DNA of 64,000 nt, taken from assembly GCA_020854775.1 (NCBI GenBank), contig JAHKLZ010000005.1, forward strand, positions 49,797 through 113,796, read 5' to 3'. Position numbers and translations under genes: made by a program. The stretch is from Candidatus Woesearchaeota archaeon. GTDB lineage: Archaea > Nanobdellota > Nanobdellia > Woesearchaeales > 21-14-0-10-32-9. This document shows positions 1 through 55,738 of the stretch, in pieces; the stretch's first letter is position 1; each line of letters opens with the position of its first letter. The notes under the pieces were generated by a model that saw only the letters and a list, made by a program, of their open reading frames with translations, did no database searches and was not told where the DNA came from.

Positions 1-1042
1 TATTTTTGTTAAGTTTGATGTTTCTTTTAAGGGTAAAGATATTTCGGGTTTGCTTGCTAGTGTTTTGAAGGATAATTTCGTGTTTGATCGTGTTCGTGGT
101 TCTAGGGATTATTTTCATGTTCGTCGTGGATTAGTTTTTGAGTTGGTTCCTGTTATTGATGTTTCTCGTATTGAGGATGCTGATAATGTTATTGATATGT
201 CTCCTTTGCATGTTGATTATTTTCTTCGTAAGGGTGCTGGTTTGGAGGATGATGTTCGTTTGTTGAAGCGTTTTATGAAGTCTGCTCGTGTTTATGGTGC
301 GGAGAGTTTCATTAAGGGTTTTAGTGGGCACGTTGTTGATTTGTTGGTTATTAAATATGGTAGTTTTATGAATGTATTAAGGGCTGTTTCTAAGTGGGAG
401 CCTGTTGTTATTATTGATATTGATAAGAAATTAAAGGATCCTTTGTTGGAGCTTGATAAGGCTAAGGTTTCTGGTCCTTTAGTAGTTGTTGATCCTGTTC
501 AGAAGGATAGGAACGCGGCTACTGCTTTAAGTTTTGATTGTTTTTATGATTTTGTGAATCGTTGTAAGTCTTTTTTGGAATCTCCTTCTGAGGATTTTTT
601 TGTTTTGAGGTCTGCTAGGGACGTTGTTTCTCCTAAGAAAGGGGAGTCTTTGTTTGAATTCGTTATTGATCCTCTTAGTGGTAGTGAGGATGTTTCTGGT
701 TCTAAGGTTCTTAAGGTTTTGGATTTTTTGTTTAAGGAATTGAAGAATCGTGATTTTTTGTGTTCTGGTTTTGTTTGGGATTTTGGTTTTCCTTGTAGGG
801 CTTATTTTTGTGTTGAGGATATAAAATTGGATCCTGTTAAGGTTGTTCGTGGTCCTCCTTTGAGTTCTGAGGTTCATTGTTCTGCTTTTAGGGCTAAGCA
901 CAAAGTTGTTTTTGATGATGGTAATTTTTTGTTTGCTAAGGTTAATAGGGATTTTGTTTGTGTTTCTTCTTTGTTTGATTTTTTGATTGAGGATTCTTAT
1001 GTTTTGGAGCGTTGTGTTAGTATCTCTTATAAAAAGATTTGA
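1..1042 (+). CDS. cca: tRNA nucleotidyltransferase (archaeal CCA-adding enzyme), 5'-truncated by window edge
   Basis: Frame is open from position 2 with no upstream stop. The C-terminal body/tail region matches the archaeal class I CCA-adding enzyme (GFSGHVVDLLVIKYGSF). Stop is TGA at 1040-1042. Confidence 0.65.
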   Translation, partial: IFVKFDVSFKGKDISGLLASVLKDNFVFDRVRGSRDYFHVRRGLVFELVPVIDVSRIEDADNVIDMSPLHVDYFLRKGAGLEDDVRLLKRFMKSARVYGAESFIKGFSGHVVDLLVIKYGSFMNVLRAVSKWEPVVIIDIDKKLKDPLLELDKAKVSGPLVVVDPVQKDRNAATALSFDCFYDFVNRCKSFLESPSEDFFVLRSARDVVSPKKGESLFEFVIDPLSGSEDVSGSKVLKVLDFLFKELKNRDFLCSGFVWDFGFPCRAYFCVEDIKLDPVKVVRGPPLSSEVHCSAFRAKHKVVFDDGNFLFAKVNRDFVCVSSLFDFLIEDSYVLERCVSISYKKI

Positions 1043-1659: not shown

Positions 1660-3141
1660 TTAGATTATTTTTGATATTAGTATTCCTGTGATTGTTGCTA
1701 TTATTAAGTATATGATTGCAGGCATGATTGTTTTTTTTAGTATTTTTATTTCTTGGTTTTTTAGGTTGACTGTTGTTTGTGCCGCTATTATGTTTGTTAG
1801 TGATATCATGTTTCCTATTCCTGCGCCGATTACTTGTAATGCTAATACTAGGAATGTGCTTATGCCTATTATTTGTGCTGTTTCTTGTTGGAATGCTCCG
1901 AATAATATGTTTGATACTGTTGCGCTTCCTGATAGGAATGATCCGAATGCGCCTATTGTGGGGGATATTATTAGGAAGTTTTTTGTTGTTATTGTTTGTG
2001 TTATTGTTGTTAGCATTCCTGGTATGTTTTTGTTGTTGAAGCTTGTTAGTATTAGTATTTGTATTGTTGCTGTTATGAATAGTATTGTTAAGAATGGATT
2101 TATTAATTTCTTCGTGGTTTCTTTTAGTATTGGTTTTATGTGTTTGTAGCTGTTTTTTATTATTGTTGTTAGTATCAGTATTGTTATTATGAATATTATT
2201 CCTGGGTTGTATAGTGTTAAGTTATGGGTTACTGTTGGTTGTATTGTTATTGTTTTTGATGGTAGTACATATTTTCCTAGTAGTAATAGTGTTGTTAGTA
2301 TCGCGTAGGGCATTAAGTTTTTTAGTTGTGATTTTTTTTCTTTTATTACGTTTTTTACGTTTTTTGGTACGAATAGTTTTTTCTTTGTTGTATACATTAT
2401 TATGATGAGTCCTATTATTGGTCCTAGTAGTGAGGGGAATTCTGGTCCTATGTACGTTAATAAGTAGTAGGGTATTAGGAAGCATAGTCCTGCCCATATC
2501 GCGTAGGGTATCATTTCTTTAAATTTTTGTATTGGTTGTTTTTCGTAGTAGGTTATTGTTGCTATGATTAGTACTGGTATTATGAGTCCTGCTATTAAGT
2601 TTATGAGTCCTGCTGTTTCTGCTACAAACGTTGTTTCTAGTCCTGAGTATCCTATTCTTATAGGGGTTCCTACTGCTCCAAATACTACTGCTGTTGAGTT
2701 CCCTATTAGTGCTAGTGTTACTGCTAGTATAGCAGGGAATCCTATTGCTACTAGTAGTGGCGCGGTTATTGCTGCAGGTGTTCCAAATCCCGCTGTTCCT
2801 TCTATGAAGCTTCCGAAGAACCATATTATTATTATTGCTTGTATTCTTTTGTCTGTGCTTATTTGTGTTATTTGTTGTTCTATTTTTTTTATTAGCCCTG
2901 TTTTTTTTAGGAATTCTAGGAATAGGATTGCTCCTGTTATTATTAGTATTATATCTATTGATATTAGTAGTGCTTTTGTTATTGCTGCTGTTACGTATTC
3001 TTGTTTTATTAACCAGTGAGTCGTGCTTATTATTAGTGTGTAAATAAATGTTATTGGTGCTGCTATGTACAAGGGTTTTTTTAGTATTAAGAATATTATT
3101 AGTAGTATTATAGGTGTAATTGCTATAATTACTGTGTTCAT
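1660..3141 (-). CDS. L-lactate permease (LctP) family transporter
   Basis: 493-aa polytopic membrane protein with an LctP-like motif (FIEGTAGFGTPAAITAPLLVAIGF). Confidence 0.55.
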   Translation of the reverse strand: MNTVIIAITPIILLIIFLILKKPLYIAAPITFIYTLIISTTHWLIKQEYVTAAITKALLISIDIILIITGAILFLEFLKKTGLIKKIEQQITQISTDKRIQAIIIIWFFGSFIEGTAGFGTPAAITAPLLVAIGFPAILAVTLALIGNSTAVVFGAVGTPIRIGYSGLETTFVAETAGLINLIAGLIIPVLIIATITYYEKQPIQKFKEMIPYAIWAGLCFLIPYYLLTYIGPEFPSLLGPIIGLIIIMYTTKKKLFVPKNVKNVIKEKKSQLKNLMPYAILTTLLLLGKYVLPSKTITIQPTVTHNLTLYNPGIIFIITILILTTIIKNSYKHIKPILKETTKKLINPFLTILFITATIQILILTSFNNKNIPGMLTTITQTITTKNFLIISPTIGAFGSFLSGSATVSNILFGAFQQETAQIIGISTFLVLALQVIGAGIGNMISLTNIIAAQTTVNLKNQEIKILKKTIMPAIIYLIIATITGILISKII

Positions 3142-10543: not shown

Positions 10544-13141
10544 TTATTTGGTTGATTCTATTATTGATTTAACGTTTATTTTTCCGCCTTCAGTTTTTGA
10601 TACGTCTAATCCGTCTTCTCCATAATTAAATTGTACGATTTTTCTTGATGCATCTCTTACTGTGAAATCGTATTCTATTTTTAAGTCTTGCATCGCGTTC
10701 GCTAATCTTCTGTATAAATAACCTGACTTAGGCGTTCTTAGAGCGGTATCCATTAAGCTGTCTCTTCCTGTCATTGCCATGAAGAACATCTCGTGTGGTT
10801 TTAATCCGTCTTTGAATCCTCCTTTTATGAATCCTCTTGGGACCGCGCTCAGATCTCCTTTCTTGAAGCAAGATAATGATCTGTCTTTGTAGCCTTTGTC
10901 GATTCTTCCACCTCTTAGCGCTTGTTGTCCTACGCAAGCAGCCATTTGAGCTAAGTTAATTATATTTCCTCTTGCTCCGCTTCTTATCATGTGCATAGTG
11001 TTACTGTTTTGTTTCGCTGTTTCTTCCACTATGTTTCCTGATTCATTTCTTGCTTTGCTTAGTCTCTCAATTATTCTTAGTTCTATTGTTTCTTCAACGG
11101 ATCTGCCAGGTAATAATTCTAGTGTTCCTTCACTATATTGTTTAATGAACTTATCCACGTCTTTTTGTGCTTCTGTTATTATCTGACTAACTCTTATTTG
11201 TGCTTCTTCACTTAGATCCATGTCTGATATCTTAGATGTAAATCCTCTTTTTAGTAGCATTTCTGCTCCTAATCCGTTGATTAATCTTAGTAATCTTACT
11301 ATTTCTTTCTCTCCATATTTTTGGTGCAATTTTCTTAATAATAGTCCTGATCCTTGACCAAGATTAGCAGAGTCCATCACTCCTGATATTAGTTTTCCTT
11401 TCTCAATTTTCACGACTGCGTCAGGATCCTCAGGGTTCTTTGATGCTATTTTTGATTTTCCTACGAAGTCAAAATCGTCAGGTATCACCACTGAGAATAC
11501 TTCTTTCCCTGTTACTACTTTCTTGTTTGGTAACTTAGAGAAATCTTCTATTCCCGCGCTTGCTAATAAGTCTATTGCGTCTTCGCGTTTCATTTCGTAT
11601 CCTTTTCTTGTTAGTAAATAATTACCTGTTATGCTGTCTTGGATGCACGCAATGATGCTTAAACCATACCTAGGACTTATTATTTGTGTTTGTACTTCCA
11701 TTAATGTTTCTGCTTCTGCTCTTGCTTCTTCTGTTTGAGGAATATGAATATTCATCTCGTCCCCGTCGAAGTCAGCGTTGTATGGTGCACAAACAGCAGG
11801 ATTAAGTCTTAGTGTTAGTCCCGGTAGTACTTTTACTTTATGACACATCATACTCATTCTATGCAGGCTTGGTTGCCTGTTGAATAGTGCTATGTCTCCA
11901 TCCATTAAGTGTCTTTCAACTATGAATCCTGGTTGGATTTCTTCCAGTAATTGTTCTTTTGTTTCATTAGTTATGCGTTTTCTTTTTCCGTCAGGTCTTA
12001 AAACGTAGTTAGCTCCTGGGTAATCTTCATTTCCTCTTTCTACGAATCCTTTTAAGTATTCTATGTTCCACTCAGTGACTCTTTCTGGAACTGATAATTT
12101 CTTTGCTATAATACTTGGTACTCCTACTTCGTTTATGTCTAGTTTAGGATCTGGACTGATAACTGTTCTAGCTGAGAAATTCGTTCTTTTTCCTGCTAGG
12201 TTCTTACGAATTCTTCCTTCTTTGCTTTTTATTCTTGATGATAACGTTTTTAATGGTTGATTTGATCTGTGTCTCGCAGGAGGTAGATTCGCTACTTCGT
12301 TATCGAAGAACGTTGTTACGTGATATTGTAATAAATCCCATAAGTCTTCAATGATTATTTCTGGTGCGCCCGCGTTTATGTTTTCAAATAATCTTTGGTT
12401 TATACGCACGATGTCTCCTAATTTGTGTGTTAAATCATCTTCGCTTCTTTCTCCGCTTTCTAGTGTGATGCTTGGACGCATTGTTACTGGCGGTATTGGT
12501 AACACTGTTAGTATCATCCATTCAGGTCTCGCTATATCAGGTTTTATTCCGAATACTTTTAGGTCTTCATCTGATATTCTTTCTAGTCTTGCTCTTACTT
12601 GTATTGGAGATAATCTTCTATCTTCTTCTACGAACGTTGATGGTTTTTCTAGTGATATCTTTGATTGTTTTTCTTTACAGTAAGGACATGTTTGTATTGT
12701 TCTTAGATTAGCTATGATTAATTTTATTGCGTCTCTTCTTTCTATTAGTCCTTGTTCTAATGTTATTTTGTCTAATATGTCTGAGTATTGTTTTATTTTT
12801 TCTTTTGGTATTAGTATTCTTCCGCAAGCTTTACATGTTGATCTTAATAAATCTAGTATTACTGGAACAAAAGATATGTGAACTACTGGTCTTGCTAGTT
12901 CTAAGTATCCGAAGTGCCCAAAGCTTTCTTTTAGTCTTTGTCCGTCTGTTTTACATCTTAGTCCTGGGTCTATTACGCCGAGGCGTACATCCATTAGTCC
13001 TCCGTCTACTGGGTATCCTTCTTTGTCGTATAATTCAGGAGTTACTACTTTTGCTTTTGCTACTTTTTCTATCATTTTCGGCGACATTAGGCCGAATTCG
13101 ATTGATCCGATGTATTTGTATATTGGTTTTTCGTTACTCAT
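10544..13141 (-). CDS. rpoA1: DNA-directed RNA polymerase subunit A'
   Basis: 865 aa. N-terminal clamp and Zn motifs plus the NADFDGDEM active site. Confidence 0.92.
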   Translation of the reverse strand: MSNEKPIYKYIGSIEFGLMSPKMIEKVAKAKVVTPELYDKEGYPVDGGLMDVRLGVIDPGLRCKTDGQRLKESFGHFGYLELARPVVHISFVPVILDLLRSTCKACGRILIPKEKIKQYSDILDKITLEQGLIERRDAIKLIIANLRTIQTCPYCKEKQSKISLEKPSTFVEEDRRLSPIQVRARLERISDEDLKVFGIKPDIARPEWMILTVLPIPPVTMRPSITLESGERSEDDLTHKLGDIVRINQRLFENINAGAPEIIIEDLWDLLQYHVTTFFDNEVANLPPARHRSNQPLKTLSSRIKSKEGRIRKNLAGKRTNFSARTVISPDPKLDINEVGVPSIIAKKLSVPERVTEWNIEYLKGFVERGNEDYPGANYVLRPDGKRKRITNETKEQLLEEIQPGFIVERHLMDGDIALFNRQPSLHRMSMMCHKVKVLPGLTLRLNPAVCAPYNADFDGDEMNIHIPQTEEARAEAETLMEVQTQIISPRYGLSIIACIQDSITGNYLLTRKGYEMKREDAIDLLASAGIEDFSKLPNKKVVTGKEVFSVVIPDDFDFVGKSKIASKNPEDPDAVVKIEKGKLISGVMDSANLGQGSGLLLRKLHQKYGEKEIVRLLRLINGLGAEMLLKRGFTSKISDMDLSEEAQIRVSQIITEAQKDVDKFIKQYSEGTLELLPGRSVEETIELRIIERLSKARNESGNIVEETAKQNSNTMHMIRSGARGNIINLAQMAACVGQQALRGGRIDKGYKDRSLSCFKKGDLSAVPRGFIKGGFKDGLKPHEMFFMAMTGRDSLMDTALRTPKSGYLYRRLANAMQDLKIEYDFTVRDASRKIVQFNYGEDGLDVSKTEGGKINVKSIIESTK

Positions 13142-21780: not shown

Positions 21781-22260
21781 TTATTCTTTTTTTATTTCTT
21801 TTTTGAGTTTATGTCTTAATTCATTAATTTTTTTTTCGTTTAATTTAATAAGAATAGATTTACATTTCACTAAGAACTCCGGTGATTTTTGAATCATCTT
21901 ATTGTATTGTTCGTCTGGAACAGTTCTGTCTACGTAGTACTGAGAATCAACTCTCGCTTTTAAAGAATCTTCAATAAATCCTAATTCATCTTCTTCAAAG
22001 TACTCTTTTAAGAATCTTTTTGCGAATTCGATAGTGCATGAATGAATTTCACATTTCACACCTAATTTCATCAGAACAGCATATAATGAAAAATAAATCG
22101 TGTAATACGCCGTGGATATTCTCCAATCTTTAATTATGTTTAGCCTCATCGATTCGAGTGCTTCTTCTGATTTTTTAATGTAAGCTTTTGCCAAATCAGA
22201 ATTTGGATCGATTAAGTTCAACCCTTCTTTTTTTTCAATACACCACTTTATTTTATTCAT
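21781..22260 (-). CDS. HEPN domain protein (partner of the upstream nucleotidyltransferase)
   Basis: Helical HEPN-like fold (PF05168-type). Overlaps the minimal nucleotidyltransferase gene by 8 nt, as in HEPN/MNT toxin-antitoxin pairs. Confidence 0.55.
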   Translation of the reverse strand: MNKIKWCIEKKEGLNLIDPNSDLAKAYIKKSEEALESMRLNIIKDWRISTAYYTIYFSLYAVLMKLGVKCEIHSCTIEFAKRFLKEYFEEDELGFIEDSLKARVDSQYYVDRTVPDEQYNKMIQKSPEFLVKCKSILIKLNEKKINELRHKLKKEIKKE

Positions 22261-22906
22261 CTTTAAAAACCACTTCTATAAATTGTTCTGCATTTAAAAA
22301 AACCACGTGGTTTTTTAAAACTTCTTTTATGAGAACGTCTTTCATCATATTTTTCTCAAAATTATTTAAAGGATAACACTTAACACTTATTTCTAAACCT
22401 AAATTCTTTGAAACTTTTTTTATTTCTTCATTATTATGACTTCCTACAATAAAGATATCCAAATCAGAACCTTTTTTTTCTAATCCTTTAACGTAACTTC
22501 CAAAAATTATACCTATTCCTTTAATATGAGGCGTTATTTTTTCTATTATTTCTTTAATTAAAAGTTTTTTTTCTAAAAAAGCAATTAATTTATATTGTTC
22601 TACAAAAACAAGATATCTCTTAGTGAATTCACTCACATTTAATTTAAATATCTTAATTTTACCTTTTGTTTTTGATTCCACAATTCCTTTTTCTTCTAAA
22701 TCTTCAAGGACGAGTTGCGCCGTTCTCGGACTAATTTTTAACAATTTTCCAACTTCTCTAACATAATACTCTCTTTTAAAATCATTAGTGAATAAAGCTA
22801 ATACTCTCAAAGTATTCTCCGTGAATCTTAATTTTTCATACATACGTATACTTAATAATACAACCATTATATAAATTTTTTTATTATTTTCATAATTTAT
22901 CATCAT
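22253..22906 (-). CDS. winged-HTH fused minimal nucleotidyltransferase (MNT)
   Basis: N-terminal wHTH (LKISPRTAQLVLEDLEEKGIV) plus the nucleotidyltransferase motif GSYVKGLEKKGSDLDIFIVG. The real start may be MYEKLRF at 22843. Confidence 0.6.
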   Translation of the reverse strand: MMINYENNKKIYIMVVLLSIRMYEKLRFTENTLRVLALFTNDFKREYYVREVGKLLKISPRTAQLVLEDLEEKGIVESKTKGKIKIFKLNVSEFTKRYLVFVEQYKLIAFLEKKLLIKEIIEKITPHIKGIGIIFGSYVKGLEKKGSDLDIFIVGSHNNEEIKKVSKNLGLEISVKCYPLNNFEKNMMKDVLIKEVLKNHVVFLNAEQFIEVVFKDE

Positions 22907-30328: not shown

Positions 30329-30427
30329 TTCTTTTTCCTCCTTGAAAAAAAGCGTTATGCTTCTTTTTGAACATGAATCCTTTTAAGGATTAACGAATAA
30401 CTTTTTTTTATTAATTATTTTTATTAA

Positions 30428-30778
30428 TTATTTATCTCTGTGTTCCACTTCGTATTGGTACGCTTTTAACTCTATCTTGTTTTCATCCCTTATTATGTAT
30501 AATTCTTCCAAGTCATTTATAACAGTGTGTTCACCCGCTAAATAATAAGAAACATTCAATCTTCTTATTCTAACTTTCTCTATGTTTGTAAACTCGTAAA
30601 TCGTGTGTGGAAAAACACTTGGTGACTTATGCGGATTATTAACGTCAAATAATTTTATTACGAGCACAGGATAATCATCGTTTTGTGAGCCGTACTTCTT
30701 ACACGGCTTACTGCATATTAATACACTGGTTGTTTTGACTCTTATGTTCTTTTCTTTAGGGTCAATATGCGTCTTCAT
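30428..30778 (-). CDS. hypothetical protein (116 aa)
   Basis: ORF only. No motif recognised. Confidence 0.3.
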   Translation of the reverse strand: MKTHIDPKEKNIRVKTTSVLICSKPCKKYGSQNDDYPVLVIKLFDVNNPHKSPSVFPHTIYEFTNIEKVRIRRLNVSYYLAGEHTVINDLEELYIIRDENKIELKAYQYEVEHRDK

Positions 30779-30835
30779 TCCTTGAAGTATTGTTATTAAT
30801 TATAAAAAGTTTGTGAATAACTCGTTTTCCTCTAA

Positions 30836-30897
30836 GATGGACTCTGCGATATCCTCAACACTTGTTTCAGGACCGCAAACTCCTGATGGACTCTGCG
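30836..30897. repeat. 13-bp direct repeat (GATGGACTCTGCG) copying the tRNA-Ala 3' end, copies at 30836-30848 and 30885-30897
   Basis: Exact duplicate of the acceptor-3'/discriminator region about 50 bp downstream of the tRNA. A hairpin (CAGGA...UCCUG) lies between the copies. Confidence 0.5.
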
Positions 30898-30995
30898 GGA
30901 TTTGAACCCGCGGCCTCACGATCTTTGGACAAAAAAAATTTTTTTTATTCTTTTGTGTGCCAACCGAGCGCTCTACCAGACTGAGCTAAGAGCCC
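30887..30995 (-). tRNA. tRNA-Ala (anticodon GGC) with a ~35-nt intron at 37/38
   Basis: G3:U70 identity pair (GGGCUCU/AGAGUCC), discriminator A, anticodon loop UUGGCA|A, T-loop UUCAAAU. The anticodon stem has one U:U mismatch. The intron carries A8/U8 self-complementarity. Confidence 0.55.
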
Positions 30996-31225
30996 CTACT
31001 TATTGCTTAACTTCGGGCTCGACCGAAGGAAGACCCACTCGGCATCAACGGACGAAACCGTTGGAGCTAAGAGCCCCTACTTATTGCTTAACTTCGGGCT
31101 CGACCGAAGGAAGACCCACTCGGCATCAACGGACGAAACCGTTGGAGCTAAGAGCCCCTACTTATTGCTTAACTTTGGGCTCGACCGAAGGAAGACCCAC
31201 TCGGCATCAACGGACGAAACCGTTG
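30983..31225. repeat. 3 x 81-bp perfect tandem repeat (one C>T difference in copy 3)
   Basis: Each unit ends with the first 13 nt of the tRNA-Ala gene (GGGCUCUUAGCUC in tRNA sense). It also holds the upstream leader, with two 6-bp stem hairpins (CAACGG..CCGUUG and CUUCGG..CCGAAG) and a GAGCCC block complementary to the tRNA 5' acceptor strand. Confidence 0.8.
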
Positions 31226-31274
31226 GTTGTAAAAGTCGAAGTTTTTATAAAGATTTCTCACTCACTATTGTTTT

Positions 31275-32957
31275 ATGGTTTTTAGTATTGAGCAAAGGGA
31301 TTTGATGTTTAAGCTCGCGTTGAAGAATGCTGTTAAGCATGATGGTTCTGCTAATCCTAAGGCTTTGATTGGTGGTTTTCTTGGTGAGTTTCCTGATGCG
31401 CGTAAGGATATGAAGTCTTTGGTTGTTGAGTTAGGTGTTGTTGCAGGCGAAGTTAATAGTCTTGGTTTGGATGTTCAAAAGGAGAAGCTTCTTGAATTGG
31501 AACCTGATGTTTTTGTTAAGAAGGAGAGGAATATTTTTGATTTTCTAGGCATTTCAGAGGGTGAGTTTGTTAAGACCGCGTTTCCTCCTGGTCCTGAGAA
31601 GCATCCTCATATTGGTCATGCTAAATCTTTATTATTGAATTATTTGCTTGCTAAACAATACAACGGCGAATTTTGTTTGCGTTTTGAGGATACTAATCCT
31701 GATTTGGTTAGGGCTGAGTTTTATGATATTATGTTGAAGGATTTTGGTTGGCTCGGTGTGTCTTGGGATGAGTTGGTTTTTGCTTCTGATTTTATGGATT
31801 TGTATTATGAGCATTGTGAATCTTTGTTAAAGGATGATAAGGCGTATGTTTGTTCTTGTAAATCTGAGGATATTAAGGTTCAAAGGGAAACTGGTGTTCC
31901 TTGTTCTTGTCGTGGTAATTCGTCTGTTAAGAATCTTGAGTTATGGGATTTGATGAAGACTTCTATGAGTCCTGGTGATGCTACTGTTCGTTTGAAAATT
32001 GATTTGTTGCATAAGAATAGTACTATGCGTGATCCTAGTATTTTTCGTGTTAATTTGAATGAACATGCTCGTCATGGTTCTAAGTATAGGGTGTGGCCTA
32101 ATTATGATTTTCAAAATAGCATCATGGATGGTTATTTTAAGATTACTCATCGTATTAGGAGTAAGGAGTTTGAGATGAGGAATGAGCTTCAAAGATTTAT
32201 TCAGCGTTTGTTTGGTTATGATGAAACTAAGATTTTTGAGATGGCGAGGTTTAATATTGAGGGTGCTGAAGCGTCTGGTAGGGTTATTCGTGAGATGATT
32301 AAGAATAATGAGTTGATTGGTTGGGATGATCCTTCTCTTATTACTCTTTGTGCTCTTCGTCGTAGGGGTTTTCTTCCTAGGGCTATTGAGAATTTCGTTG
32401 TTAGTACTGGTATTTCTAAGAGTGAATCTGTTTTGACTTGGGATGATTTGATTGTTCAGAATCGTAGATTATTGGATGAGTCTTCTGATAGGTTTTTCTT
32501 TGTTTCTGATCCTGTTAAGTTAGAAGTTGTGGGTGCTCCGAGTAAGAGTTTTGAGTTGAATCTTCATCCTATGCACAGGAAGGGTGGTCGTTTGTTTAAT
32601 ACAAAGGATGTGTTCTTTGTTTCGCGTAAAGATTTTGATTCTTTTAAGAGTGGTGTTTACAGGTTTATTGAATTGTTTAATTTTGAGTTTGACTTTGAAA
32701 GTAAGGTGGCTAAGTTCTTGGATGAAGATGTTAAAACGTTTAAGGAAAAAGGTAAGAGTATGCTTCATTATTTGCCTGTTTCAAGCGGTGTTGAAGCTGA
32801 GGTTTTAATGCCTGATAAAGAAGTTGTTAAGGGTTTGTGTGAAGAAAACGTAAAGAAAGCGAGAGTTGGTGATGTTGTTCAGTTCGAGCGTTTCGGGTTT
32901 TGTCGCTTGGATAAAGTTGAAGGTAATAAATACTTTTTTTGGTTTACTCATTCTTAG
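31275..32957 (+). CDS. gltX: glutamyl-tRNA synthetase (archaeal/eukaryotic type)
   Basis: HIGH motif (HPHIGHAKS) and RFEDTNP. The N-terminal extension is like methanogen GluRS. Confidence 0.85.
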   Translation: MVFSIEQRDLMFKLALKNAVKHDGSANPKALIGGFLGEFPDARKDMKSLVVELGVVAGEVNSLGLDVQKEKLLELEPDVFVKKERNIFDFLGISEGEFVKTAFPPGPEKHPHIGHAKSLLLNYLLAKQYNGEFCLRFEDTNPDLVRAEFYDIMLKDFGWLGVSWDELVFASDFMDLYYEHCESLLKDDKAYVCSCKSEDIKVQRETGVPCSCRGNSSVKNLELWDLMKTSMSPGDATVRLKIDLLHKNSTMRDPSIFRVNLNEHARHGSKYRVWPNYDFQNSIMDGYFKITHRIRSKEFEMRNELQRFIQRLFGYDETKIFEMARFNIEGAEASGRVIREMIKNNELIGWDDPSLITLCALRRRGFLPRAIENFVVSTGISKSESVLTWDDLIVQNRRLLDESSDRFFFVSDPVKLEVVGAPSKSFELNLHPMHRKGGRLFNTKDVFFVSRKDFDSFKSGVYRFIELFNFEFDFESKVAKFLDEDVKTFKEKGKSMLHYLPVSSGVEAEVLMPDKEVVKGLCEENVKKARVGDVVQFERFGFCRLDKVEGNKYFFWFTHS

Positions 32958-33025: not shown

Positions 33026-33574
33026 ATGAATGAAGTAGAAATATCTATTAAACAAAAGATTCGCAATATTCGTGGTAAGCAAGTAATGCTTGATTCTGAT
33101 TTAGCAGAGCTTTATGGTGTGTCCACAACTAGATTAAATGAGCAAGTTAAAAGGAACATTGAGCGTTTTCCAGAGGATTTCATGTTTCAATTAAGTGAAT
33201 CTGATTTTGAGATTTTGCGGTCGCAAATTGCGACAGCAAATATTAGTTGGATTAAAAAAAGATTTTTACCTTTTGCTTTCACAGAGCAGGGCGTGGCTAT
33301 GCTTTCTAGTGTTTTGCGTAGTAAAAAAGCTGTTGAGGTTAATGTTAAGATTATGCGTGCTTTTATTGATATGCGTCGTTTTTTATTTCAAAATGTTGAT
33401 GTTTTTGAGAAATTTCATAGGATTAATCAAAAATTTTTAGCTTATGATGATAATTTTAATAAGATTTTTGAGGCGATGGAACAAAAAAGATTTCCTGTGC
33501 GGGGTATTTTTTTTGATGGTCAGGTTTTTGATGCTTTTTTGTTTGTTTCTGATTTGATTAAAAAAGCGAAGTGA
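33026..33574 (+). CDS. ORF6N-domain (phage/ICE-associated) DNA-binding protein
   Basis: Near-consensus ORF6N block (IRGKQVMLDSDLAELYGV..LNEQVKRNIERFPEDFMFQLS). Ends at a single TGA. Composition is A-rich and atypical for a plus-strand gene. Confidence 0.7.
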   Translation: MNEVEISIKQKIRNIRGKQVMLDSDLAELYGVSTTRLNEQVKRNIERFPEDFMFQLSESDFEILRSQIATANISWIKKRFLPFAFTEQGVAMLSSVLRSKKAVEVNVKIMRAFIDMRRFLFQNVDVFEKFHRINQKFLAYDDNFNKIFEAMEQKRFPVRGIFFDGQVFDAFLFVSDLIKKAK

Positions 33575-47905: not shown

Positions 47906-49066
47906 TTATTTATTTATTTCTTCGTGAACAAGTATGTTCCAGAAAAATTGTGTTAGTTCATCATCATCTCGTTTCTTTGAGAGTTTTGTTAAATTCATGT
48001 ATTCATCGAAAGAACCCATTTTCAAAATTATTAAAGGGAAACCGTTTTGCATCATTATCCAATTTAAAATCATCCTAGTTGTTCTACTGTTACCATCAGC
48101 AAAAGGGTGTATTCTTTGAAATTCGTTGTGAATCCAACCTAATTTATCTAAACAATTAGCAGAATTTATTTTTTTTATTTCAGAGCAAAAAGAATTCATG
48201 TGCTCAGGAACTTTGCTAGGAATAACTGTTTTAAAATCAGGATTTCCTTGAATTTTGTTTTGAGTTATTTTATATTTGCCTGCGTGCCTGTGCATACTAA
48301 ACATTATCAAGTAATTGATTTTTTTTATTTGTTTTTCAGTTATTTCTTCATCAATATTTTCTAGAACATAAATTAGTGCTTCATTAAGGTTTTTTACCAT
48401 TTGAATATCTTTTTGAGGCTTTTCAGGATAAATATCCTTAACTAATAAATCTCTTGTTTCCCCAATTGAAATAGTCGCGCCTTCAAGTTGAGCGCTACCA
48501 GCGAGAAAAGAAAAAATTTCTTCATCAAAAGGATTTACAGGCTTTCCCTTTATTTTTTTAACTTTTAATTTAACATCCTTAAAATCTATGTTAGGTTTAG
48601 GAACTTTTATTTTAATATCAAAGACACCTAGAATATAATCAAATAATTGATGTCTTAGCATTATCCCTATGTAAGGTTTTTTTTTATGAACAAGGATGAA
48701 TTGATTGTTTTCTAAGTAAGATAAAATATTTAAAATGTCTTTGTTATTTTTTAATTTACGTGGACGTAAATTTGGCAAGTTTTTGATTAAATCTGTTAAA
48801 ATTAAAGGCATATTTTTTGAAAAAAATAAATTATAATCTAAATTATTTTTCAAACAATATTTAATTGTTTTAAATGCATAAAATGTTTTGTTATTTTTAA
48901 TTGGAACATAAAATTTATTTTGTTCTTTTACCCAACCAATTTTTACTAAATTTTTTAATTGAACATATACTTCTGATTTAAAACCCAGTTCCGATTCTCT
49001 GCAAGGGCTTTTTTCAATTAACTTAGCAAAAACATCGTATTTTGTTGGCATAAGCAAAAGAAACAC
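47906..49066 (-). CDS. Fic/DOC family protein (AMPylase-like)
   Basis: Fic motif HPFADGNSRTTR matches HPFx[DE]GNGRxxR. Long N-terminal helical region. Confidence 0.7.
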   Translation of the reverse strand: MFLLLMPTKYDVFAKLIEKSPCRESELGFKSEVYVQLKNLVKIGWVKEQNKFYVPIKNNKTFYAFKTIKYCLKNNLDYNLFFSKNMPLILTDLIKNLPNLRPRKLKNNKDILNILSYLENNQFILVHKKKPYIGIMLRHQLFDYILGVFDIKIKVPKPNIDFKDVKLKVKKIKGKPVNPFDEEIFSFLAGSAQLEGATISIGETRDLLVKDIYPEKPQKDIQMVKNLNEALIYVLENIDEEITEKQIKKINYLIMFSMHRHAGKYKITQNKIQGNPDFKTVIPSKVPEHMNSFCSEIKKINSANCLDKLGWIHNEFQRIHPFADGNSRTTRMILNWIMMQNGFPLIILKMGSFDEYMNLTKLSKKRDDDELTQFFWNILVHEEINK

Positions 49067-54714: not shown

Positions 54715-55431
54715 TTGGGTGATATTATGAGTAAGGCTTTGTATATGGATGATTCTTATTTGAAAGAATTTGAGAGTGTTGTTGAAAAAGTTGTTGGCGA
54801 TTCTGTTGTTTTAAAAGAAACCGCTTTTTATCCTAGTAGTGGTGGTCAGCCTCATGATACTGGCTTCATTGTTAGAGGAGTTGACGAATTCAAAGTTGTT
54901 GATGTTCGAAAAGAGAGTGGTGAAATTATTCATGTTCTTGAAGCTAATGGTTTAGTTGCGGGTGATGTTGTTAAAGGTTTTATTGATTGGAATCGTCGTT
55001 ATAATTTGATGAAAGCACATACAGCGACTCATGTTCTTTGTAGTATTCTTCATAATGAAACTGGTGCTTTGATTACTGGTAATCAATTGTATGAAGATAA
55101 ATTAAGAATTGATTTCAATCTTGATAATTACGATAAAGAGTTATTAAAAGAATTAGTTAATAAAGCTAATGGTGTTCTTGTTCAAGATCATTCAATTTCT
55201 TCTTATTATTTATCTAGGGAAAAAGCTTTTAAGTTGCCTGGAGCTTTGAAGCTCGCTAATATTTTACCTCCTAATATTAAGACTTTGAGGATTGTTGAGA
55301 TTGAAGGTGTTGATGTTCAGGTTGATGGAGGCACTCATGTTAAGAGCACTTCTGAAGTTAAGAATTTGAAATTGTTAAAAACTGAGAATAAAGGTAAGAA
55401 TAATCGTAGATTAGTTGTTGGTTTTGAATGA
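54715..55431 (+). CDS. alaX: AlaX-type alanyl-tRNA editing protein
   Basis: Zn-binding HxxxH editing motif (AHTATHVLCSILH) and the AlaRS second additional domain. Confidence 0.75.
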   Translation: MGDIMSKALYMDDSYLKEFESVVEKVVGDSVVLKETAFYPSSGGQPHDTGFIVRGVDEFKVVDVRKESGEIIHVLEANGLVAGDVVKGFIDWNRRYNLMKAHTATHVLCSILHNETGALITGNQLYEDKLRIDFNLDNYDKELLKELVNKANGVLVQDHSISSYYLSREKAFKLPGALKLANILPPNIKTLRIVEIEGVDVQVDGGTHVKSTSEVKNLKLLKTENKGKNNRRLVVGFE

Positions 55432-55623: not shown

Positions 55624-55738
55624 GCCTTTGTAGCTCAGTGGTAGAGCGTCTGCCTCGTATCCTCTAAACGAGTTTTTTAGGACTCGATTAAGGGGTGGAG
55701 TAAGCAGAAGGTCGCGAGTTCAAATCTCGCCAGAGGCT
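55624..55738 (+). tRNA. tRNA-Thr (anticodon CGU) with a 43-nt intron at 37/38 (55660-55702)
   Basis: Acceptor GCCUUUG/CAGAGGC with discriminator U, anticodon stem UCUGC/GCAGA, loop CUCGUA|A, T-loop UUCAAAU. Mature length is 72 nt. Confidence 0.7.

Follow-up and report, generated by a model that had tools for sequence, protein, structure and literature searches.

Organization of the tRNA-Ala(GGC) locus

The window analyzed is a 64,000-nucleotide (nt) stretch of DNA from a Candidatus Woesearchaeota archaeon (contig JAHKLZ010000005.1 of assembly GCA_020854775.1) in which the gene encoding tRNA-Ala(GGC) is flanked at both ends by short modules that carry copies of the tRNA termini (Table 1). The gene was matched over its full length by the Rfam model RF00005 with a score of 53.2 bits. 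ARAGORN, run with introns allowed, identified tRNA-Ala(GGC) with a 35-nt anticodon-loop intron following nt 38, the canonical position, bearing out the intron-containing tRNA-Ala proposed in the original prediction; run without the intron option, the program misses the gene. The acceptor stem GGGCUCU/AGAGUCC holds G3:U70 and no CCA is encoded. The tRNA-Ala gene is complete and intact.

The 5' array consists of three head-to-tail 81-bp units (30983-31225, minus strand) running into the tRNA gene, each composed of a 68-nt leader element, designated E, followed by tRNA nt 1-13; copies of a terminus outside the gene are referred to as orphans. Tandem Repeats Finder returned 3.0 copies with a period of 81 and 99% matches (30983..31226), consistent with the near-identical units originally described, and they differ solely by a transition at 31176, where the promoter-proximal unit has A in place of G (tRNA sense). 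The predicted composition of each unit, the first 13 tRNA nt plus approximately 68 nt of leader, was also upheld by counts of exactly three in the window for both the 68-nt part and the 13-mer GGGCTCTTAGCTC (the 13-mer at 30983, 31064 and 31145, all on the minus strand), where approximately none of either would be expected by chance. The G+C content of E is ∼50% versus ∼33% for the genome. Two open reading frames (ORFs) of 127 and 100 amino acids (aa) with repeated peptides, which run antisense through the array (30902-31305, plus strand), are by-products of the repeats and not genes.

On the 3' side of the gene the sequence CGCAGAGTCCATC is present at 30885-30897 and again at 30836-30848, in agreement with the 13-nt duplication of the 3' end that had been described, and with a period of 49 bp. 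This duplication is one unit of a variable 49-bp tandem array; that property, and the copy-number polymorphism in the population, had escaped the original prediction. Neither array is a CRISPR, as was correctly stated, since the would-be spacers, E or the 36-nt trailer, repeat one and the same sequence. No Cas family was found among the ∼40 window ORFs scanned with Pfam, a part of all ORFs in the window.

The tRNA gene lies between a 116-aa ORF and a divergently oriented gene encoding glutamyl-tRNA synthetase (GluRS; 31275..32957, plus strand), toward which the A/T block of the TATA box also faces. Homologues of this GluRS assign the organism to the Woesearchaeota, within the DPANN archaea. 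The block CTTTATAAAAACTT is invariant across 10 related loci (alignment A4). No TATA-like box is present within the 81-bp units, and the sole conserved TATA box is upstream of the first unit, for which reason the triplicated promoter suggested earlier is highly improbable. The units of the window lie between this promoter and an oligo-T run and contain no run of five T; an oligo-T run is also found 3' of the last orphan copy in three related loci (L012, L056 and L059).

Table 1. Features of the proposed tRNA-Ala(GGC) transcription unit in the window, in the direction of transcription. R2 is a covariance model of E.
Feature	Position	Strand	Remark
TATA box TTTATAAAAA	31242..31251	minus	read from sequence
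E copy 1, promoter-proximal, A variant at 31176	31158..31225	minus	R2, 68.4 bits
Orphan copy 1 of tRNA nt 1-13 (GGGCTCTTAGCTC)	31145..31157	minus	exact match
E copy 2	31077..31144	minus	R2, 66.2 bits
Orphan copy 2 of tRNA nt 1-13	31064..31076	minus	exact match
E copy 3, abutting tRNA nt 1	30996..31063	minus	R2, 66.2 bits
tRNA-Ala(GGC)	30887..30995	minus	exon 1, 30958-30995; intron, 30923-30957; exon 2, 30887-30922
3' hairpin unit	30839..30883	minus	arm a' GGAGTTTGCGGTCCTGAAAC, 30864-30883; loop AAGT, 30860-30863; arm a GTTGAGGATATCGCAGAGTCC, 30839-30859
Orphan of the tRNA 3' terminus (CGCAGAGTCCATC), nt 63-73 plus 2 trailer nt	30836..30848	minus	3' end of arm a
First oligo-T run (TTTTT) past the array, candidate archaeal terminator (putative function)	30804..30808	minus	read from sequence

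Strain variation and recurrence in related species

Ten further contigs were collected by exact-protein look-ups from independent assemblies of the same population (ENA ERZ272522xx, JGI 3300033170 and Logan). Outside the arrays these contigs are 99.6-100% identical to the window. Within the arrays, copy number varies from one to three 5' units and from one to four 3' units, the exact count being uncertain only for three or more identical units: L002 and L007 carry one 5' unit and two 3' units, L006 two and three, L001/L003 two and four, and the window three and one. The single-copy allele (L002) has no upstream orphan. Near-identical head-to-tail units that vary in number among strains with 99.6-100% identical flanks are properties shared with variable-number tandem repeats (VNTRs), which arise by unequal recombination or slipped-strand mispairing. 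In contrast to VNTRs, the units extend into the ends of an essential structural RNA gene, and homologous single-copy modules are conserved in other species.

Resolving a tandem array that exceeds the assembly k-mer in length is difficult, and several contigs break in the 3' array (contig ends fall inside it in four), as would be expected if the triplication were a mis-assembled single copy. However, arrays were observed in independent assemblies, with different pipelines and in different species. In addition, the single-copy allele has the G variant beside the unique promoter flank, whereas the multi-copy alleles have A in that place. Since this single-nucleotide polymorphism (SNP) adjoins the unique flank, each allele would need its own observed k-mers at k = 141, which argues that the 1- and 2-copy alleles are not collapses of one another. 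An assembly artefact is hardly credible as the origin of the arrays. Also within the population, ∼25 nt corresponding to window positions 33188-33212 are missing in the JGI strain L001, inside an ORF6N-domain gene (33026-33574), the product of which is thus called as 119 aa versus 182 aa.

Loci from related species were gathered by synteny with GluRS in GTDB genomes, by a metagenome scan with the tRNA-Ala 5' exon and from contigs encoding GluRS homologues. On the 5' side, L051 has the order E, orphan, E, tRNA, while L048 has at least two diverged copies of E and an orphan. A single E between an orphan and the tRNA is present in L050 and L063 (orphan 13/13 or 12/13) and in L017/L052/L054/L065, where the orphan is decayed (10/13). 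E alone precedes the tRNA in L016 and L053/L061, and in L055 and L049 orphans are followed by different hairpin leaders. On the 3' side, the unit forms a tandem repeat of 52 bp with 4.1 copies (98%) in L012, is present once in L056, is cut by contig ends in L057 and L058, and has a diverged form in L036. L059 contains six perfect copies of CGCAAAGTCCAT with five different spacers of 37-81 nt. The modules are specific to tRNA-Ala. Among the 60 tRNAs of all loci, nearby orphan termini were found solely at tRNA-Ala genes and none at other tRNAs, and in 700 kb of sequence R2 found E solely at tRNA-Ala(GGC) genes. The distribution of E is patchy on the GluRS tree: the window has E, and its five closest relatives, including the 81%-identical L056, are without it.

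The only E found outside the leader position is in L036, where the tRNA-Ala(GGC) gene (1905-2193, minus strand) has a T-loop intron of ∼213 nt between TTCAAA and TCCCGC that starts with an E homologue (R2, 32.8 bits). The diverged 3' hairpin of this locus, which contains the orphan CCGCAGAGTCCA, is located 50 nt downstream. In L049 the tRNA-Ala(GGC) gene (2300-2550, minus strand) has two introns, one in the anticodon loop and one of 46 nt in the T-loop that contains C/D-box-like motifs (GATGATGA ... CTGA); two 13-mers resembling orphans are located upstream, and a CTTCAAAA/TTTTGAAG hairpin comes after each of them. Also in L049 (280-580, minus strand), upstream of the gene for tRNA-Ala(UGC) (185-279), the 3' end of 16S rRNA (GATCACCTCC) with ∼35 nt of trailer is present twice, ∼150 nt apart, and has the appearance of another terminus duplication at a structural RNA gene.

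The interval between tRNA-Ala and the gene for a HAD hydrolase is a variable islet with a gene content that differs among close relatives. In the window (30329-30835) it holds the 116-aa ORF, of unknown function; in L056 (374-2250) a zinc-ribbon protein, a 168-aa ORF and a DUF6036 nucleotidyltransferase; and in L059 (1-1820) an HTH protein and DUF6036; it is empty in L013, L014 and L020. Elsewhere, the window encodes a CCA-adding enzyme (50-1039, plus strand), adjoining HEPN-domain and nucleotidyltransferase ORFs resembling a HEPN/MNT toxin-antitoxin pair (21784-22906, minus strand), a Fic/DOC protein (47909-49066) and an AlaX-like free-standing editing-domain protein comprising the C-terminal part of tRNA-synt_2c and tRNA_SAD (54715-55428, plus strand). 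A second intron-containing tRNA is located at 55624-55738 (plus strand; Rfam, 62 bits), for which the ARAGORN call of Thr(AGU) with an intron at position 33 appears doubtful.

Conserved folds of the modules

The 3' unit, arranged as arm a', loop and arm a, folds as GGAGUUU-GCGGU ... AUCGC-AGAGUCC-A with 7+5 bp resembling the acceptor/T-stem stack, an equivalent of ∼12 bp that ends in the discriminator as in a minihelix. The apex is conserved, with a 1-nt bulge, a tandem G.A and a covarying tip. The predicted fold of the window unit has an energy of -20.2 kcal/mol (z = -5.4) and a score of 69.1 bits with the model R1, and single 3' units fold with z = -3.7 to -5.9. Across nine variants from four species 90.7% of cells in the hairpin are paired, versus 31-46% in slid controls, and three compensatory pairs are present, at the apex. 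The helix contains 18 G.U cells versus no A-C cells, indicating a fold that can operate only in the tRNA-sense strand. Arm a' mirrors the tRNA 3' strand in Watson-Crick fashion and can alternatively fold back on the 3' end of the tRNA itself. Because of this mirroring, position 3:70 of the hairpin is A:U, C-U or U-U and never G:U (alignment A2, with L056 re-aligned by eye).

Two helices are conserved in E. Hairpin 1 (CAAYGG-UUUCGU-CCRUUG), present in the window as described (CAACGG/CCGUUG), is 98% paired with three compensatory pairs (alignment A3), and for a second stem, S2 (GUGGG/CCCAC; AUGAG/CUCAU in L017 and L050), the corresponding values are 87% and two; pairing in a possible pseudoknot stem is lower, at 73%. 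The second hairpin of the original prediction (CUUCGG/CCGAAG) can form in units 2 and 3 of the window, but the SNP disrupts it in unit 1, and among homologues its pairing is only 50%. The proposal of a structured RNA module is thus supported by hairpin 1 and S2 and not by that hairpin. Unlike the 3' unit, the helices of E show no wobble asymmetry, with five G.U and five A-C cells. The 3' strand of S2, AAGCYC, is also complementary to nt 1-5/6 of the adjoining 13-mer, whether orphan or genuine, a property kept in all copies of E, including that of L017 in which an A2:U pair takes the place of G2.U.

A GAGCCC in the window, complementary to GGGCUC of the tRNA, was noted earlier and is indeed present. 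It had suggested a resemblance to the split tRNAs of Nanoarchaeota, such as those of Nanoarchaeum, in which leader and trailer pair. Sequence flanking the tRNA that is complementary to part of it is common to both, and excision of one 81-nt unit would leave the same mature sequence, as in a disrupted tRNA (split, permuted or with a D-arm intron) that uses the orphan 13-mer as an exon. The gene is nevertheless unsplit: a complete tRNA gene follows the last unit, the orphans comprise only 13 nt and the single-copy allele has none. The complementarity is to the acceptor strand and not between extensions of two halves, and manual inspection revealed no bulge-helix-bulge geometry at the 13/14 and -1/+1 junctions. 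A disrupted-tRNA system is accordingly very improbable.

The folds raise the alternative that the modules are functional parts of the precursor tRNA or separate small RNAs, and that the change in copy number is incidental. In that event the 3' hairpins could be mimics of a tRNA-Ala minihelix (12-bp stack, discriminator A and 3-nt linkers) acting as punctuation or decoys, recognized by RNase P, tRNase Z or the CCA-adding enzyme, and E, paired with the 5' acceptor strand, would regulate how the RNA is folded or processed. Consistent with this alternative are the pairing and compensatory changes in the 3' hairpin and in both helices of E, the strand-specific wobble pairs, the retained complementarity of AAGCYC, the location of the units between promoter and oligo-T run, and the absence of G:U at position 3:70, as a result of which AlaRS would not charge the hairpins. 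However, many close relatives lack E and the hairpin units, which are thus dispensable, and the UUUUU in the hairpin apex of L012, L056 and L057 could terminate archaeal transcription before the hairpin is completed. Further, A3:U70 is merely the Watson-Crick complement of U70 expected of an inverted copy of the 3' strand, and E lacks wobble asymmetry. In searches of Rfam 15 only the tRNA was matched, all other hits having E > 0.5 and scores far below the gathering thresholds. A role as functional RNA is considered less likely than the recombination-based reading favoured below, with which it is compatible.

Known RNAs of comparable form include the t-elements of plant mitochondria and mascRNA, which are tRNA-like processing signals, and the acceptor/T-stem minihelices used in studies of RNase P, tRNase Z, CCA addition and AlaRS. 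The 3' unit shares with these a 7+5-bp helix that ends in the tRNA's own 3' strand and discriminator and lies directly behind the tRNA. It differs in that the T-loop is replaced by an extended apex with a tandem G.A, G3:U70 is absent and the units form an array of putative processing targets.

Other candidates were rejected. The possibility that E is a decayed tRNA paralogue, hinted at by a tRNA-Ala(CGC) just upstream in L029 and L037 and by the resemblance of S2 (GUGGG/CCCAC) to a T stem, was not significant in Smith-Waterman comparisons against shuffled sequences (p = 0.09-0.9). Likewise, the spacer of the 3' unit as a copy of the tRNA 3' half was not significant, arm a' being better described as the Watson-Crick inverse of the 3' strand. 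A C/D box or canonical K-turn does not fit the hairpin apex and E, the bulge being 1 nt and not 3 and box motifs being absent in most species. The core order is unsuited to a hammerhead or other ribozyme, for which there was no Rfam match, and pairing of leader with trailer as a processing stem would involve only weak A/U-rich complementarity.

Proposed insertion and loss at the tRNA termini

The original prediction had raised an attachment (att) site scar at the tRNA, and comparison of related loci lends it support. Direct repeats identical to the tRNA terminus are present in the window (31145, 31064 and 30983 at the 5' end; 30885 and 30836 at the 3' end) and in relatives. Further exact or 1-mismatch copies of the 3'-terminal 12-mer are found on the same strand at a distance from the tRNA: 0.23, 1.8, 3.1 and 4.9 kb downstream in L016, 0.77 kb in L017, 5.6 kb in L047 and 8.5 kb in L051. 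The chance expectation for an exact 12-mer is ∼0.003 per 20-kb locus. Five of these distal copies (three in L016 and one each in L047 and L051) are preceded by a conserved arm of ∼45 nt, ATTCACTGTCCC...GTGACCTGTTTTAACTC, that is the inverted repeat of the trailer TGAGTTGTAACAGGTCA located 3' of the tRNA in L016, L047, L050 and L063. The profile of this arm matches only downstream of tRNA-Ala(GGC), including a sixth copy ∼1.6 kb downstream in L048. A 1-mismatch match to the 12-mer at window position 11366 (plus strand) lies on the opposite strand inside a coding region and was treated as chance.

The four copies in L016 (4266-9215, minus strand) bound segments of 0.23, 1.6, 1.3 and 1.8 kb with the look of a cassette array. 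The segments encode a class II aminoacyl-tRNA synthetase, an HTH_10 regulator, an AAA protein and a histidine phosphatase, while those bounded in L047 and L051 hold glycosyltransferase clusters; the genes are of ordinary or island type.

Occupied and empty versions were found at both ends of the tRNA. At the 3' end L018 is an empty site: of the copies in L016, only the one 3.1 kb downstream gives an alignment with its terminus and flank. At the 5' end, tRNA nt 1 of L012, L057, L059 and L066, which lack E, occupies exactly the position of the L050 orphan. The decayed orphan of L017 lies 27 nt past a shared upstream motif, the same distance at which the tRNA starts in L047. Decay of the duplicates grows with distance from the tRNA, as seen for the last copy in L012, the distal copies in L016, the orphan of L017 and the upstream-most remnant in the window (7/13).

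These results bear on the alternative of a plain tandem duplication of the native leader and trailer by replication slippage, in which the 13-nt overlaps would be accidental breakpoints. Near-identical head-to-tail units with strain-level variation in copy number are consistent with slippage, and E is homologous across species, so that one ancestral event could explain the shared 13-nt boundary. Left unexplained are the occurrence of the pattern at both ends of the same tRNA, the kb-scale segments of relatives bounded by exact copies of the 3' terminus and by the inverted-repeat arm, the heterogeneous units of L059 with perfect termini (including an unrelated 81-nt spacer) and the presence of E inside a T-loop intron. 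Slippage as the whole explanation is for these reasons unlikely.

In a published case from the archaeon Caldiarchaeum (PMC3293823), integration of an element at the 5' terminus of tRNA-Thr leaves behind an orphan 5' fragment and can bring in an intron. The locus shares with this case and with other archaeal integrative elements (those with SSV-type and pNOB8-type integrases) the direct repeat of the tRNA terminus, the reconstituted and intact tRNA, the upstream orphan 5' fragment, the heterogeneity in the population, the link to intron gain and the occupied and empty sites in relatives. It differs in that the units are only 36-68 nt, without an integrase, present at both termini of one tRNA and tandemly amplified, and in a duplicated core of 12-13 bp versus about 40 bp. 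Compared with tRNA-targeted integration in general, the locus is without an integrase, a free phage-side attachment site (attP) or an element-sized insert.

The favoured reading, to which a probability of roughly one half is assigned, is a composite one in which accessory modules bounded by tRNA termini are gained and lost at the duplicated termini, then expanded and contracted by unequal recombination, and are co-transcribed with the tRNA and trimmed off. The locus would constitute one transcription unit in the order TATA box, n copies of E plus the 13-mer, intron-containing tRNA-Ala(GGC), m copies of the hairpin unit and oligo-T. E (68 nt) and the 3' hairpin unit (36 nt) would be accessory modules specific to tRNA-Ala(GGC), each bounded by a 12-13-bp duplicate of the adjacent terminus, at which gain or loss would occur precisely in a pattern matching that of archaeal integrative elements at tRNA 5' or 3' ends. 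Once a module lies between two terminus copies, unequal homologous recombination or slippage could produce the observed variation in copy number. Since no promoter and no T-run occur within the units, they are probably transcribed as leader and trailer, and would be removed by ordinary end maturation, with RNase P cutting at G1 of the final copy and the 3' end being processed behind A73. The conserved folds may serve the RNA, through control of processing or folding, or recombination through a single-stranded DNA intermediate.

Several observations weigh against the composite reading. The compensatory changes and the 18:0 excess of G.U in the 3' hairpin point to selection on a single-stranded fold, and neither would be shown by a pure scar. 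Comparison of occupied with empty sites cannot separate insertion from precise deletion between 13-bp repeats; because recombination between two 13-mers would delete E precisely and give the empty-site spacing, recurrent loss of E is as plausible as gain. The search for an integrase that had been suggested was negative, with no integrase or transposase found among the ∼40 window ORFs scanned or in the inserted segments of L016, L047 and L051. No matching attP was detected in IMG/VR, INPHARED or PLSDB, collections that hold few DPANN elements, when searched with E, the 3' unit and the tRNA exon. A unit of 81 or 49 bp is too small for an autonomous circular element, E is without terminal inverted repeats, and in the clade of the window the 3' terminus bounds only mini-units and no kb-scale segment. 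As the single-copy allele lacks an orphan, the first duplication would require an older orphan (now 7/13) or an illegitimate event. Finally, short-read assembly cannot fix the copy number of arrays with three or more identical units.

A bolder reading, considered quite unlikely, is an integron-like system for site-specific capture at the tRNA-Ala(GGC) termini of Woesearchaeota. The sites would be folded single-stranded hairpins composed of an inverted-repeat arm, a 12-13-nt core from the tRNA terminus and a second arm; the smallest cassettes would be empty units of 36-68 nt (the 3' hairpin unit and E) and the largest would be segments of 1-8 kb that carry genes (L016, L047 and L051), and the gene for the recombinase, a protein of an unrecognised type, would lie elsewhere. 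Arrays of imperfect palindromes with strand-asymmetric mismatches are shared with repetitive extragenic palindromes and bacterial interspersed mosaic elements (REP/BIME) and with integron attC arrays, and L016 and L059 have variable cassettes that end in the same conserved site. The locus differs from these systems in its anchoring on a tRNA terminus and its archaeal host, and no RAYT or IntI gene was found. On inspection, the RYYYAAC...GTTRRRY arrangement of attC is also absent, the GTT/AAC triplets being wrongly arranged.

Genes for tRNAs are classic landing sites for mobile DNA, which usually leaves behind a large island with a single partial tRNA copy at its distal end. The locus described here is different in that miniature modules delimited by duplicated termini occur at each end of the same tRNA, that the modules are still changing copy number in a natural population and have conserved folds, and that one of them is also part of a T-loop intron. 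No description of such a double-ended module architecture at tRNA-Ala was found in the literature, from which the Caldiarchaeum precedent was retrieved. In practical terms, the arrays can serve to tell strains apart and are known to cause contig breaks in these metagenome-assembled genomes. The variation in copy number among strains and the recurrence of the layout in related species mark this tRNA as a hotspot for insertion and recombination. The locus could inform how leaders, trailers and non-canonical introns come to be part of archaeal tRNA genes, how DNA is exchanged at tRNA sites in DPANN genomes with few recognisable mobile-element genes, and whether natural minihelix-like RNAs without the alanine identity pair have a role.

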